UHGV virus genome: UHGV-0068847
Reading direction: 5' to 3' (one strand)
DNA length: 27,295 nt
Source of the DNA: a virus
The notes beneath the pieces were generated by a model, which made no database searches, was not told the DNA's origin, and saw only the letters and a program-made list of their open reading frames with translations. Position 1 is the first letter of the stretch. Every line of letters starts with the position of its first letter. Shown piece by piece: positions 2,194 through 7,404 of the stretch. A program made the translations under genes and the position numbers.

Positions 2194-2660
2194 TCCCCCT
2201 TCACGCCAATGCCAGCGGCGCGGATTGCGTCGGCACATTCTTCCAGTGCAAAGTTATATTTATCAGAAACTAGCCCGTAACCTTTCGGGTACGGCGTCGG
2301 CAGCGTCACGGTCCGCGCCACCAGTTCTGCTATGCGCTTCTCTGCAATTTCCAGCTCATCCAGCAGCGCCAGCACAGTGGCAGGGTTAGCGGCGGCGATG
2401 AATTCTGCGTTGCGTTTGGCTGTCTCATCCCAAGCCATGTGGTAATCGTGATCCAACTCTTCGTGAATGCACGCTGCTGTGGAATTGGTCATGTCGAGCA
2501 ATGACTCGCTACCGACGTAAACCGCGTATGAGTGGTATCCAGACGCTCTGTCTTCACCCTCGCCGTATTCACCGTCAGTTTCGACAACATCGGACCACCA
2601 TTCGCCCTGGGTGGCTTTCTCTGCTGTTTGGCGCAGCGCCTGTTTGTTGAGTGCTGTCAT
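2190..2660 (-). CDS. Ead/Ea22-like early protein
   Basis: 156-aa acidic protein with NPATVLALLDELE-type C-terminal region recalled from Ea22-like proteins of lambdoid phages; ATGA-coupled to neighbours. Confidence 0.5.
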   Translation of the reverse strand: MTALNKQALRQTAEKATQGEWWSDVVETDGEYGEGEDRASGYHSYAVYVGSESLLDMTNSTAACIHEELDHDYHMAWDETAKRNAEFIAAANPATVLALLDELEIAEKRIAELVARTVTLPTPYPKGYGLVSDKYNFALEECADAIRAAGIGVKGE

Positions 2661-3733
2661 TGGGCTGCCTCCATTGCGAATGTCCCTGCTGTGATAGCCA
2701 TTGCAAGCCTTTGTGCTGCAGCTTTCTGTGCCGGAACGCTGGCAATTACCGTGGCTCTTTCTTTGCTGGCATCAGCACAAACACCATCCCATGAAGAGAT
2801 AAGGAAGAAGTCTTCCAGCTCGGTCATTGTGGCTTTTGTTACCAGTTCTTCGATCATCTGCACGATGATATGCGCAGGGCGACGCCTCAGTAGTTCCTGG
2901 ACTGCATAGCCAAACGCATTGATCATCACCGCATGGAATTGGATGTAATCTCGCTTGTATTCAGCTGGTGATACACCGTGTCGGATACCATCAATAGCCG
3001 TCAGCTTCAGCCACGCTTCCCAAAGGTCATAAATATCGCCAGTAGACAGCGCATCGTCCCCGTTACCCGCGAATTTAGCAGTTGCATCACCAACGGCCTT
3101 AAAACTAATCCAGAGGTCACTTTTTGCCGGAACCACGCTGTGTTCAAAATCGGTGATCTCGGAGAACACTGAGTGAGTGGAGAGGAATGACACCATTGTC
3201 TGGGCAACCTGATCCCTGCCGTTATAAGCCATATTTATTGCTGCAGAAGGCTTAGATACGTTGTTATTGATATCAGAGAAAAATTGCTGGCGTGTCTTCA
3301 GTGGTAGTTGCAGAGTCATCATCAAAGGTACAAACAGGGGTGTATCGTATTCTCTGCAGAACATGGTTATACCTGCACCACGATGTTGCCCATCAAAAAG
3401 TTTAATTTCTGCGTCCATTGGGAACCGAACAACGCCTACGTTTGTATTGCCGAACTCTTCAAACTCCACATGTGAAGCACAGTTACCAACCAGTGGTGGG
3501 ATGATGAAAGGCTCCTTATTTTCAGCAGCTGCCACTAGGTATTCGTAAAAATTTTTTACGCGTGATTTATTGAGTTCACGCTGAGAACGCTCAAGCGTGT
3601 GTCCGTAATTATCAGATGCCAGTACGCGGGATAGGGTTCGTCCTGGAACGTTCATCAAAAGAATAAGCGTATCCCCCTGCAAGCCGCGAGAGGCAGGGAA
3701 CTCGAAGTAATACTCCATACTCGATTTGCTCAT
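2657..3733 (-). CDS. DGQHR-domain protein (DndB-like)
   Basis: 358-aa ORF containing the literal motif LFDGQHRGAGI; no DndA/C/D/E-like partners anywhere in the window; start overlaps the upstream stop. Confidence 0.65.
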   Translation of the reverse strand: MSKSSMEYYFEFPASRGLQGDTLILLMNVPGRTLSRVLASDNYGHTLERSQRELNKSRVKNFYEYLVAAAENKEPFIIPPLVGNCASHVEFEEFGNTNVGVVRFPMDAEIKLFDGQHRGAGITMFCREYDTPLFVPLMMTLQLPLKTRQQFFSDINNNVSKPSAAINMAYNGRDQVAQTMVSFLSTHSVFSEITDFEHSVVPAKSDLWISFKAVGDATAKFAGNGDDALSTGDIYDLWEAWLKLTAIDGIRHGVSPAEYKRDYIQFHAVMINAFGYAVQELLRRRPAHIIVQMIEELVTKATMTELEDFFLISSWDGVCADASKERATVIASVPAQKAAAQRLAMAITAGTFAMEAAQ

Positions 3734-5696: not shown

Positions 5697-6068
5697 TCAC
5701 TGTGCCGCTTTAAGCTTTCCATCCACCGCGCCAGTGATCCCGAACAGCTGACCCTGATCTTCCTGCAGGATGGTTAGCTTCCCGCCTTTGTTGACCCACA
5801 TCGGGGTTTCGGTTGTGTCCTCTTCGGAGGCTTTACCACGCGGTGTCGGGGTGCTGTAGTTCAGCTTGTGCTTGATCTTCACGCGCTTCTCTTCAACGGA
5901 ATTACCCATACGCTCAAAATCAAATGTGAGGACTACTTTGCCTTTGTTGCCGTTGTTCAGAACGCCAAGCGCGGTAGTATTAAGTGCTGCCGCGATTTTG
6001 TTCATGAACACGCCGGCATCCAGTTCGCCAAGAAAATCTGGCACTACGGTCATGCGGTCATTACTCAT
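5697..6068 (-). CDS. Hypothetical early protein, possibly YfdP-like (123 aa)
   Basis: First gene of the leftward operon; GAGGG RBS before ATG at 6068. Confidence 0.45.
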   Translation of the reverse strand: MSNDRMTVVPDFLGELDAGVFMNKIAAALNTTALGVLNNGNKGKVVLTFDFERMGNSVEEKRVKIKHKLNYSTPTPRGKASEEDTTETPMWVNKGGKLTILQEDQGQLFGITGAVDGKLKAAQ

Positions 6069-6341
6069 GGTTTTACCCTCGTTAAGGCGGCTGCAACCGC
6101 CGAACTTTCTCCATACACAACAGAGAAGGGCACCTGCATTGGTCGGCGGCTTGCAGAGACCGCTTTCTTTTTGCCCGGGTGGATTGGGTTATGAGCCCGT
6201 CGCCCGGTGATGCCCTTTTCTGTTGTGCCTTGAAAAAGGCTGGCGGTTACCGGACAAGTGGGAAAACACCGGGCCGCCAGAATAGTGGTACAAGGCATTT
6301 GTTATCCTCACCAAACGTACCAATGATTACGTTTGATGATT

Positions 6342-6400
6342 TAAATGTACCTTTAGTTACCTTTGCGGTCAAGCGAGTAATGTACTTTATGTTACCTTTG
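6342..6400. promoter_or_regulatory. Putative left operator region (two 21-bp repeats)
   Basis: ATGTACCTTTAGTTACCTTTG (~6345-6365) and ATGTACTTTATGTTACCTTTG (~6380-6400); same motif recurs at OR. Confidence 0.5.
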
Positions 6401-6407
6401 GGAATGT

Positions 6408-6441
6408 AAAAAAGCCGAGGCTATGCTCGGCTCTTAATTTT
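6408..6441 (-). terminator. Rho-independent terminator downstream of the repressor gene
   Basis: GCCGAG-gctatg-CTCGGC hairpin (6414-6431) with a TTTTTT run on the minus strand and TCTTAATTTT on the plus strand; possibly bidirectional. Confidence 0.55.
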
Positions 6442-6448
6442 GAAGGGA

Positions 6449-7108
6449 TTAAATGTTTTGAGTGATTTGTACAACTTTTCCGACAATGCGACAGTTACCA
6501 TCAATTTGGATTGGCTTAAATAACGGATTCAGTGGCATTAGGTATGAGTAGGGGCTATCCCAAACTAATTTTTTAACCGTTGCTTCTGATGTCCCATCCA
6601 ATATAGCAACGACTATTTTCCCATATAGATCATCAAGCTGCCCATAATGGGGCTCGACTATAACAATAGAACCTTCTGGTATAGATGGAAGTCCTTGCGG
6701 GTTAGTCATCGACTCACCGCGGACTACTAACCCAAACGCTTCATCCGATACATTTGCAGTTGTTTGAGTCCAGGAAATCACGTCTGTAAGTCTTGAGCAG
6801 GCATAGCTATCCGTCCATAAACCGGCTTGAACTGCCGATATGATCGGTACAGCTACAGGGGGTTTCAAAAAAGGCACGACGCGCGTGTCGTCAATGGCCT
6901 CATCACCGCTTCCATAGAGTATCCACTCTGGTGTTGTTGATAGAGCCTGAGCCAACTGGTGAAGGTTCTCACCATCAGGCTTTGTCGTGCCGTTTTCCCA
7001 TTTTGTAACCGATACACGGCTTACACCAAGCTTTTTAGCCAGTGCTAATTGGGTTATATCCAGCTGGATTCGTCTGGATCTGATGCGGTCTTTCATCTCT
7101 GTTTTCAT
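6449..7108 (-). CDS. cI: CI-like repressor (HTH plus S24/LexA-type peptidase domain)
   Basis: N-terminal HTH (ITQLALAKKLGVSRVSVTKWENG), C-terminal GESM serine motif and downstream Lys; divergent from the cro-like gene across the operator region. Confidence 0.85.
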   Translation of the reverse strand: MKTEMKDRIRSRRIQLDITQLALAKKLGVSRVSVTKWENGTTKPDGENLHQLAQALSTTPEWILYGSGDEAIDDTRVVPFLKPPVAVPIISAVQAGLWTDSYACSRLTDVISWTQTTANVSDEAFGLVVRGESMTNPQGLPSIPEGSIVIVEPHYGQLDDLYGKIVVAILDGTSEATVKKLVWDSPYSYLMPLNPLFKPIQIDGNCRIVGKVVQITQNI

Positions 7109-7116
7109 GTAACCAA

Positions 7117-7176
7117 TGTTACACCCTTTGCTTGTAACTGTTGTTTGCTATTTAATGTACCTTTTGTTACCTTTGG
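7117..7176. promoter_or_regulatory. Putative right operator / divergent promoter region
   Basis: Palindrome GTTACAccctttgctTGTAAC (~7117-7138) and the repeat ATGTACCTTTTGTTACCTTTG (~7155-7175) between cI and cro. Confidence 0.5.
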
Positions 7177-7200
7177 TTCATTCATCACACCGGAGGAACT

Positions 7201-7404
7201 ATGTATAAGTCCGAAGTCGTAAAGCATTTTGGCGGTATCTCTAAAACCGCTGTTGCTTTGAATATCTCACACCCTGCCGTATGTCGTTGGGGAAAGGTCA
7301 TCCCTGAGAAGCAAGCCTTCGTAATAGAGAGAATTACTAATGGGAAACTTAAGTATGACGCATCCCTATATCACAAGGTTACAGGCGTATCTGCTAACCA
7401 GTAA
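7201..7404 (+). CDS. cro: Cro/YdaS-like HTH regulator
   Basis: 67-aa ORF with GGAGG RBS, directly right of the operators and divergent from cI; HTH-like segment ISKTAVALNISHPAVCRWGK. Confidence 0.7.
   Translation: MYKSEVVKHFGGISKTAVALNISHPAVCRWGKVIPEKQAFVIERITNGKLKYDASLYHKVTGVSANQ

Follow-up and report, generated by a model that had tools for sequence, protein, structure and literature searches.

Repeats flanking a cI/c2-like repressor gene read as imperfectly palindromic operators of a lambdoid immunity region

The window analysed here, 27,295 nucleotides of the viral genome UHGV-0068847, carries a repressor gene with short repeated elements on both sides, and the question is in which symmetry these elements are recognised. 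The original prediction described operators built from direct repeats, with one palindromic variant, a mixed architecture that might separate repressor from Cro binding. We put at about 80% the probability that these repeats serve a lambdoid prophage as its OL and OR immunity operators, with one 18-bp, approximately two-fold symmetric site per repressor dimer. The same sites would very probably also be bound by a Cro dimer. Judged from sequence, they are imperfect palindromes of the P22/lambda type and no new direct-repeat design, and the locus is a lysis-lysogeny switch of the ordinary kind; its sequence specificity is uncharacterised.

The genes, candidate promoters and terminator of the region are the following.

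6344-6372, minus strand: PL candidate from the promoter scan; -35 TTGACC (6372-6367), 17-bp spacer, -10 TACATT (6349-6344)
6407-6432, minus strand: intrinsic terminator 3' of the repressor gene; stem 6413-6432, minus-strand T-run 6412-6407
6449-7108, minus strand: repressor gene, cI/c2-like, 219 aa; HTH_3 (N-terminal) and Peptidase_S24 (C-terminal)
7145-7173, plus strand: PR candidate; -35 TTGCTA (7145-7150), 17-bp spacer, extended -10 TGt-TACCTT
7201-7404, plus strand: cro, 67 aa, P22_Cro family; GGAGG at 7192-7196

The repressor matches the Pfam families HTH_3 (4.4e-16) and Peptidase_S24 (5.6e-22), and in the PDB lambda CI (3bdn, 2.8e-22) and the N-terminal domain of P22 C2 (1e-13; structures 2r1j and 1adr); the best match of its C-terminal domain is lambda CI. 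Cro matches P22_Cro (3.4e-22) and the structure of P22 Cro (1rzs, 2.6e-12). Its gene is divergent from the repressor gene and is followed by a CII gene (Phage_CP76, 4.2e-09), i.e. both an HTH plus S24 repressor and a divergent cro with a cII-type gene behind it are found, as in other lambdoid immunity regions.

For the comparison with relatives we used 96 loci from about 95 related prophages, with repressors 75-100% identical, and counts of relatives are over distinct sequences unless loci are named. The hexamers of the PL candidate (GGTCAA and AATGTA) are invariant among these relatives. The extended -10 of the PR candidate was read from the sequence, with the TG at 7165-7166 and the hexamer at 7168-7173; the promoter scan does not list this promoter because the -10 agrees with the consensus at only 3/6 positions. 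No convincing PRM candidate was found; there are two in-frame ATGs, at 7108 and 7096, weak hexamers and no Shine-Dalgarno sequence. The terminator scan lists 6407-6432 on the plus strand, the A-run at 6407-6412 was read from the sequence, and the relatives also show a hairpin and A-run. A search of the whole window against Rfam at gathering thresholds gave no matches.

The three repeat copies are not random. ATGTACCTTTAGTTACCTTTG at 6345-6365 is found again at 6380-6400 with three mismatches and at 7155-7175 with one, i.e. three matches compared with 0.00 expected from 100 shuffles. They flank the repressor gene, two on the left and one on the right, all on the plus strand. In our map these three copies are OL1, OL2 and OR1, respectively.

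6316-6331: OL3-like operator, CGTACCAATGATTACG, just downstream of the predicted PL start
6345-6362: OL1, ATGTACC-TTTA-GTTACCT, 16-bp core 6346-6361; covers the spacer and -10 of PL
6380-6397: OL2, ATGTACT-TTAT-GTTACCT, core 6381-6396; upstream of the PL -35
7107-7124: OR3, TGTAAC-CAAT-GTTACA, a perfect palindrome with its core at 7108-7123; adjoins and overlaps the start codon of the repressor gene (7108-7106)
7133-7148: probable OR2, TGTAAC-TGTT-GTTTGC; good left half, weak right half
7155-7172: OR1, ATGTACC-TTTT-GTTACCT, core 7156-7171; inside PR, between its -35 and -10

The frame of the palindrome at 7108-7123, the probable OR2 and the OL3-like site had been overlooked earlier. Multiple sites overlapping the early promoters are found at both OL and OR. 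That they are immunity operators is supported: they flank an HTH_3 plus Peptidase_S24 repressor that faces a P22_Cro protein, they overlap the PL and PR candidates, and across the related prophages they are conserved together with the recognition helices of both proteins. The repressor helix LGVSRVSVTKWE is identical across all related prophage loci, and only that of Pectobacterium phage ZF40 differs (LGLSRVTITKWE). In Cro, the HTH segment HPAVCRW shows no change among 36 distinct relatives. Both helices are fixed in all related prophage loci while the rest of each protein varies, and only the ZF40 repressor and Cro carry a few substitutions in theirs.

Within the window, an internal direct repeat can indeed be seen, as originally described: at period 10, ATGTACCTTT and AGTTACCTTT of the first copy match at 8/10 positions, and the other two copies score 5/10 and 7/10. 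A repressor could then read two head-to-tail GT(T)ACCTTT units one helical turn apart, resembling P2 C or lambda CII, with the palindrome near the repressor start as a different kind of site. The common orientation of the three copies fits such an arrangement, and so does the T-run between the units, which is invariant at OL1 and OR1. However, the copies are not without symmetry. The core GTACC-N4-GTTAC forms an inverted repeat, each arm having one mismatch, and shares its 16/18-bp register with the perfect palindrome at 7108-7123. The two proposed units also differ from each other by an indel (GTAC vs GTTAC).

Conservation separates the two readings. What the related prophages have in common is the core (A)TGTAC-N5-GTTAC(C)(T) alone, while positions 19-21 of the 21-mer are not conserved at OL1 and OL2. 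At OL1 (55 distinct relatives) the core positions are invariant and the bases past GTTAC(C/T) vary; 55/55 retain the first unit GTACCTTT intact, just 15/55 the second, GTTACCTTT, and the same 15/55 both together. At OL2 the core GTAC-N5-GTTAC is present in 58/61 distinct relatives and the other three carry TGTTCCAAAAGTTACC, yet the first unit is intact in 1/61, the second in 13/61 and both in 0/61. Only at OR1 is the second unit mostly kept (26/29), and the block there is invariant up to TACCTT in 29 distinct relatives; this hexamer, at the one site that keeps the second unit, is likely the -10 of PR. The base past GTTACC is a T in 64-100% of the relatives, as a second unit would have it, and the flanks of the sites are symmetric, AA...TT. 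Among the relatives the period-10 direct self-similarity is 6.6/10 at OL1 and 6.9/10 at OR1, compared with inverted values of 5.7/9 and 5.0/9, but such raw counts fail to separate the two readings and are not used as evidence.

From this conservation, and from the register shared with 7108-7123 and with the palindromes of ZF40, it follows that each 21-mer would consist of two inverted ATGTAAC half-sites. The layout would be 7 contacted, 4 central and 7 contacted base pairs, with the consensus ATGTAAC-NNNN-GTTACAT. The left half-sites are ATGTAcC (ATGTAcT at OL2) and the right ones, on the other strand, AgGTAAC; each agrees with the consensus at 6/7 positions in all three 21-mers, except the left half of OL2 with 5/7. 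Over the contacted positions OL1 and OR1 score 12/14, OL2 11/14, and OR2 and the OL3-like site 10/14. The sites are of dimer length and pseudosymmetric, with a common half-site consensus. The appearance of a direct repeat then has three sources: GTAC and GTWAC come close to being their own complements, the T-run is the spacer at the centre, and the T's past GTTACC mirror the AA in front of TGTAC and, in the case of OR1, also belong to the PR -10 (TACCTT).

Searching the window with GTAMC-N4-GKTAC, allowing one mismatch, gave 8 matches compared with 1.43 expected, and 5/8 are in the immunity region; the OL3-like site is matched with one mismatch. A symmetrised PWM was trained on the four sites at 6346, 7156, 7108 and 6381, which take its top ranks. 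Among about 27,000 positions, the untrained sites at 6316 and 7133 rank 7th and 8th. The site ranked 6th, at 7165-7180, overlaps OR1 and was rejected as a by-product of the repeat, since the bases past ACCTT are not conserved.

The OL3-like site has counterparts in the relatives, where a comparable site is found 30-32 bp from OL1 in 39/65 distinct sequences (0.39 expected). There the half-sites are in reverse order (GGTAAC-N4-nGTACC), the centres are not T-rich and the T-run is missing, an arrangement at odds with head-to-tail units. ZF40 provides further evidence. This phage has the same gene order (gp10 cI, gp11 cro), similar repressor and Cro helices, and the same operator family at the same positions, with OR3 TGTAACTAACGTTACC, OR2 TGTAAAAAGTGTTTGC and OL1 TGTACCTCTTGTTACC. 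It differs in its repressor N-terminal domain, which is only 60% identical, and in its OR1, where the aligned sequence is a perfect 7-4-7 palindrome, ATGTAACCATTGTTACAT (ATGTAAC-CATT-GTTACAT). The PR of ZF40, TTGCAT-17-TACATT, is at the homologous place, with its -10 over the right half-site of OR1. A scan of IMG/VR with the ZF40 repressor gave, besides ZF40, four loci of the window's group and no further examples of a palindromic OR1.

The known precedent for direct-repeat operators, P2 C, is likewise an HTH phage immunity repressor with an operator overlapping the early promoter (PMC2995052). It is a 99-aa protein whose 8-bp repeats are 22 bp apart and bind one dimer each, and among its relatives the repeats are 2 to 3 helical turns apart (PMC2995052). 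P2 C has no S24 domain, whereas the protein here, at 219 aa with S24, is a two-domain repressor of the lambda/P22 type, and the putative units here are 10 bp apart and unequally conserved. In other words, we found neither repeats conserved alike, nor a spacing of 2-3 turns, nor a protein of about 99 aa. Taken together with the poorly kept second unit, the reversed OL3-like halves and the palindromic OR1 of ZF40, this makes operators built from direct repeats very improbable.

The repeats might also be kept as -10-like hexamers with their spacers and not be operators at all. TACATT, the -10 of PL, lies inside OL1, and TACCTT, the candidate -10 of PR, inside OR1, the only site where the trailing CTT is conserved. 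Against this, OL2 and OR3 share the core with no matching promoter role, the conservation of the core extends well past the hexamers, and the sites cluster only around the repressor gene. We consider conservation for promoter function alone extremely unlikely.

Of the palindromic operators that we prefer, there is no doubt about OR1 and OR3 as elements of the sequence, and OR2 is probable. OR3 is invariant in 30 distinct relatives except for its centre (C/T, A/G), i.e. TGTAAC-YRAT-GTTAC. OR2 lies between OR3 (25 bp away) and OR1 (23 bp away), and the agreement of its right half with the consensus is 4/7. Its GTAAC is invariant in the relatives, while the bases to the left vary freely; in one relative it is GTACC, the A/C alternation seen in the other half-sites. 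The right end of OR2 overlaps the PR -35 (7145-7150), and its conservation could stem in part from this promoter element. The fourth, palindromic site of the original prediction does exist as a pair of motifs, GTTACA at 7118-7123 and TGTAAC at 7133-7138, but its two motifs belong to different operators, the first being the right half of OR3 and the second the left half of the probable OR2, and the 9 bp between them are the most variable stretch of the OR region.

Two visibly distinct forms of site are present in the window, and the repressor and Cro could divide them, with the asymmetric T-tract sites for the repressor and the symmetric OR3 essentially for Cro only, or the reverse. OR3 lies over the repressor start codon, the expected place of Cro action, and for phage phi11 a repressor has been described that does not bind all three homologous operators (PMC3991615). 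However, every site fits one half-site consensus, at 10-13/14 contacted positions, and the P22 repressor discriminates similar symmetric sites mostly via their central bases (PMC4267663). In ZF40 both OR1 and OR3 are symmetric, so a mixture of forms is not conserved as a feature of the switch. We therefore regard such a partition as unlikely, and the proposal that a mixed architecture separates the two proteins is not supported. Graded affinities of repressor and Cro for the same sites are likely, by analogy with lambda and P22.

The centres of OL1 (TTTA), OL2 (TTAT) and OR1 (TTTT) are A/T-only, while that of OR3 contains C-G pairs. At OL1 and OR1 the centre and the C at position 6 of the left half are invariant, and OL1, OL2 and OR1 share one chromosomal orientation. 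The symmetric model explains this fixed asymmetry and common orientation only as tuning of affinity. It is doubtful that the asymmetry has a function beyond such tuning; if it has, the T-tract sites might be favoured by the repressor and the symmetric ones by Cro, a partial partition of the operators, or the oriented A-tracts might set the bend direction for looping between OL and OR.

From the positions, the conservation, the protein families and the geometry of the sites, a mechanism can be proposed. In the lysogen, repressor dimers would sit on OL1 and OR1, over the spacer and -10 of PL and PR, and also, probably cooperatively, on OL2 and OR2. With these sites occupied, RNA polymerase would be blocked at PL and PR alike. 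In analogy with the P22 repressor, the A/T tracts at the centres of OL1 and OR1 may raise affinity through a narrow minor groove. OR3, over the repressor start codon, would when occupied shut off repressor synthesis; its occupant would be Cro in the early lytic phase, or repressor that is in excess. Induction of the prophage would proceed through RecA-stimulated self-cleavage of the S24 domain.

The closest characterised system is P22. Its repressor binds 18-bp rotationally symmetric sites, contacts positions 2-7 and 12-17 and not 8-11, and binds an A-tract centre most tightly, with a KD of 4.3 nM vs 14.4 and 57.6 nM for the others (PMC4267663). The predicted sites here are also of 18 bp and 7-4-7, with the A/T-rich centres that are favoured in P22 (PMC4267663). 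The N-terminal domain of the repressor has the same fold and is about 48% identical, and Cro belongs to the P22_Cro family. The differences are in the half-site sequence, here ATGTAAC, in the recognition helix (VSRVSVTKWE here, VSNVAISQWE in P22), in the C-terminal domain, here closest to lambda CI, and at OL, where the PL -35 lies between OL1 and OL2, 35 bp apart.

As in lambda, cI and cro diverge around a tripartite OR, here with spacings of 23 and 25 bp, OR3 lies where the repressor gene begins, no Shine-Dalgarno sequence separating the two, and an S24 autocleavage domain is present, the one matching 3bdn. Counted upstream from the inferred PR start, the centres of OR1, OR2 and OR3 are at 16.5, 39.5 and 64.5 bp, close to those of lambda at about 17, 41 and 64 bp. 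OR3 here is about 10 bp nearer to the repressor start codon than OR3 of lambda. Lambda further differs in its 17-bp sites, in the folds of its N-terminal domain and Cro, and in its OL geometry.

Our literature search for lambdoid direct-repeat, ZF40 and TGTAAC operators found nothing on this specificity, no binding data for this immunity type and no published operator study of ZF40; a TGTAAC match in PMC8460599 is only a primer sequence. An operator consensus, ATGTAAC-N4-GTTACAT, a site map and the likely promoters are now defined for an uncharacterised immunity group that is widespread in prophages of Enterobacterales (Kluyvera, Klebsiella, Escherichia, Buttiauxella, Edwardsiella) and includes ZF40. 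They may be useful for annotation, immunity typing and as orthogonal repressor/operator parts; the understanding of how a lysis-lysogeny switch functions is unchanged. There is also a lesson of method: with a near-self-complementary core (GTAC, GTWAC) and a homopolymer spacer, a pseudo-palindrome mimics a direct repeat in a single sequence, and conservation across genomes resolves the ambiguity.

The OL1-OL2 distance is 34-36 bp in 93 loci of the relatives. This gap is unlike the 23-25 bp of OR and counts against the palindromic-operator explanation; in the PWM ranking of the window there is no second OL site 23-25 bp from OL1 and no OR site 35 bp from OR1. The OL3-like site is enclosed by a longer palindrome found by the repeat search at 6308-6339, with arms TCACCAAACGTA and TACGTTTGATGA. 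On the leftward PL transcript this palindrome would form a 5'-terminal 10-bp hairpin, and the enclosing palindrome could act as an RNA hairpin instead of an operator. RNA folds of the window and of the relatives show differing stems at the same place.

The locus is a lambdoid immunity region, and copies of a 21-bp element lie on both sides of its repressor gene.

6372-6344, minus strand: candidate PL, the leftward early promoter (TTGACC-17-TACATT, promoter tool), its -10 lying over the left end of OL1
6345-6365, plus strand: 21-mer copy 1 (OL1), ATGTACCTTTAGTTACCTTTG
6380-6400, plus strand: 21-mer copy 2 (OL2), three mismatches to ATGTACCTTTAGTTACCTTTG
6449-7108, minus strand: repressor gene, 219 aa, Pfam HTH_3 and Peptidase_S24, flanked by the 21-mers
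7155-7175, plus strand: 21-mer copy 3 (OR1), one mismatch to ATGTACCTTTAGTTACCTTTG
7201-7404, across the right-hand 21-mer from the repressor gene: cro, 67 aa, P22_Cro family (1rzs, 2.6e-12)

The C-terminal part of the repressor matches lambda CI (3bdn, 2.8e-22) and the N-terminal part the P22 C2 DNA-binding domain (about 1e-13); a CII (CP76) gene comes next after cro. A search for ATGTACCTTTAGTTACCTTTG allowing three mismatches gave three copies in 27.3 kb, compared with none in 100 shuffles. The original prediction that these elements are operators is supported by their position around an HTH_3 and Peptidase_S24 repressor gene opposite a P22_Cro gene, and the name is reasonable.

The relatives compared were three GenBank phages (about 74% DNA identity), 12 genome loci and 80 IMG/VR loci, with repressors 75-100% identical to that of the window; the closest is a Kluyvera sichuanensis prophage (99%). 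The repressor helix LGVSRVSVTKWE is identical in all related prophage loci, and so is the Cro segment HPAVCRW, also in Pectobacterium phage ZF40, while the rest of both proteins varies. In ZF40 the repressor helix is LGLSRVTITKWE. Invariant recognition segments are what a single immunity group should show. A literature search turned up no paper describing this operator specificity.

All sites can be read in one symmetric register, ATGTAAC-N4-GTTACAT, with seven contacted, four central and seven contacted base pairs (7-4-7). When up to one mismatch is allowed, GTAMC-N4-GKTAC matches the window 8 times (1.43 expected), and five of these matches are inside the immunity region (6317, 6347, 6382, 7109, 7157). 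The 18-mers were scored at the 14 contacted positions.

OR3: ATGTAAC-CAAT-GTTACAc, 13/14
OL1: ATGTAcC-TTTA-GTTAcCT, 12/14
OR1: ATGTAcC-TTTT-GTTAcCT, 12/14
OL2: ATGTAcT-TTAT-GTTAcCT, 11/14

From its sequence, each 21-mer is two inverted copies of ATGTAAC around four A/T pairs; the half-sites of OL1 and OR1 are each one base from ATGTAAC, and the left half of OL2 is two bases off. A symmetrised PWM, trained solely on OL1, OL2, OR1 and OR3 of the relatives, places these four training sites at the top in the window and ranks the untrained 6316-6331 (CGTACCAATGATTACG) seventh and 7133-7148 (TGTAACTGTTGTTTGC) eighth of about 27,000 positions. Its fifth-best match, TGTGGCTTTTGTTACC (2828-2843), lies inside a 358-aa ORF (2657-3733, minus strand).

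The three 21-mers had been described as direct repeats rather than palindromes. Raw self-similarity at OL1 (on average 6.6/10 direct, 5.7/9 inverted) does not separate the two readings, since GTAC and GTWAC come close to being self-complementary, and these counts were given no weight. The symmetric reading was examined by three independent tests. First, ZF40, which shares the gene order and whose repressor N-terminal domain has 60% identity to that of the window, carries a perfect 7-4-7 palindrome (ATGTAACCATTGTTACAT) at the aligned OR1 position, so palindromic and direct-repeat-like forms are interchangeable at one homologous operator; it retains OR3 (TGTAACTAACGTTACC), OR2 (TGTAAAAAGTGTTTGC) and a window-like OL1 (TGTACCTCTTGTTACC). 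Second, 39 of 65 distinct relatives have an OL3-like site 30-32 bp past OL1 and downstream of where PL starts, versus 0.39 expected from shuffling; most of these sites have their half-sites reversed (e.g. GGTAAC-TGTC-AGTACC) and no T-run. Third, AA ahead of TGTAC and TT behind GTTACC are similarly conserved at OL2, where no overlapping promoter was seen. The original observation is partly confirmed: the three copies stand, and a direct-repeat architecture for them is unsupported. The region is an ordinary switch of the lambdoid type whose specificity is new and previously uncharacterised.

Conservation in the relatives was read site by site. At OL1 (n=55 distinct sequences) AA-TGTACCTTT(A/G)GTTAC is invariant; the following position has C in 36 sequences and T in 18, the two after it have T in 43 and 45, and further positions are unconstrained. 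At OL2 (n=61) the core is TGTAC(T/C)T(T/A)(T/A)(T/A)GTTACC with variable bases beyond it, and TGTTCCAAAAGTTACC is present in three loci. The second direct-repeat unit, GTTACCTTT, is intact in 15/55 distinct relatives at OL1 and 13/61 at OL2, so at OL the 21-mer has a window-specific 3' end; at OR1 it is intact in 26/29, where the trailing CTT is plausibly kept as part of a candidate PR -10, TACCTT. The asymmetric form is strictly invariant at OL1 and OR1, for which affinity tuning is offered as explanation. The starts of OL1 and OL2 are separated by 35 bp in the window (6346-6396) and by 34-36 bp across 93 related loci, and the PL -35 falls in between. This separation exceeds the OR spacings of 23 and 25 bp by about one helical turn.

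The OR region aligns without gaps. The OR3 palindrome TGTAAC-YRAT-GTTAC (7108-7123) is invariant, the 9-10 bp directly after it vary freely, and the block from GTAAC (7134) to GTTACCTT (7173) is essentially invariant. A palindromic fourth site had also been proposed; its inverted repeat, GTTACA (7118-7123) and TGTAAC (7133-7138), exists, but the 9 bp between are the least conserved part of OR, and in the register common to all sites it joins OR3's right half to the left half of a probable OR2. The idea that a mixed architecture separates repressor and Cro sites is unsupported. The site at 7133-7148, probably OR2, is spaced 25 bp from OR3 and 23 bp from OR1; its left half GTAAC is invariant, save GTACC in one relative, and its right half is weak (4/7). 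We grade it only as probable because part of the conservation may stem from the PR -35.

The conserved block across OR1 contains TTGCTA (7145-7150), a 17-bp spacer and TACCTT (7168-7173), with TG at 7165-7166, plausibly an extended -10 promoter for cro (PR); at the aligned position ZF40 reads TTGCAT-17-TACATT. This candidate was assigned from conservation and was not reported by the promoter tool, because its -10 is only 3/6 to consensus. Taking the PR start near 7180, OR1, OR2 and OR3 are centred at about -16.5, -39.5 and -64.5, close to the lambda operator arrangement. The repressor start codon (7108-7106) shares sequence with OR3, and no Shine-Dalgarno precedes it. Two in-frame ATGs (7108, 7096; MKTEM..., window 7094-7108), neither with a Shine-Dalgarno, are conserved in relatives; if the transcript were leaderless from the second, OR3 would lie at about -19.5, a lambda-like position relative to PRM, the repressor-gene promoter.

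Repressor dimers on OL1/OL2 and OR1/OR2 would block PL and PR, OR3 occupied by Cro or excess repressor would turn off repressor synthesis, and the S24 domain would allow RecA-dependent induction. The P22 repressor dimer binds 18-bp rotationally symmetric operators, contacts positions 2-7 and 12-17 and not 8-11, and favours A/T-rich, above all A-tract, centres (KD 4.3 nM versus 14.4 and 57.6 nM) (PMC4267663). The window sites share this 7-4-7 layout, and the T-run behind the direct-repeat reading falls in the non-contacted centre. By analogy with P22, OR1 and OL1, with TTTT and TTTA centres, are predicted to be strong sites, and OR3 to be weakened by the C in its centre. The known direct-repeat binder P2 C, of 99 aa, uses 8-bp repeats 22 bp apart with one dimer per repeat (PMC2995052); neither protein nor spacing fits the window.

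The 6316-6331 site is enclosed by a palindrome with 12-nt arms (6308-6339); transcribed from PL, the palindrome would fold into a 10-bp hairpin at the RNA 5' terminus. Relatives carry other stem sequences in this place, a hint that the element has a structural role as RNA besides or instead of an operator role; 6316-6331 could be an operator or belong to the hairpin. The PL leader (6075-6337, minus strand) forms a long fold (-105.4 kcal/mol, z = -4.39 versus shuffles) with an inverted repeat, 6095-6132/6211-6248. Rfam gave no match for the structure, and Pfam none for the 77-aa ORF (6065-6298) that overlaps it; the structure may act as a regulatory or antitermination RNA. In many relatives a conserved segment, GGCGGCTACTTCGTGGGCGTCCTGCCTGTTCGCTG, replaces this leader just downstream of PL, and loci with it are without the OL3-like site; carriers are L005, L006, L008-L012, L014, L015 (numbered related loci) and ZF40 (L099, about 2255-2295, minus strand).
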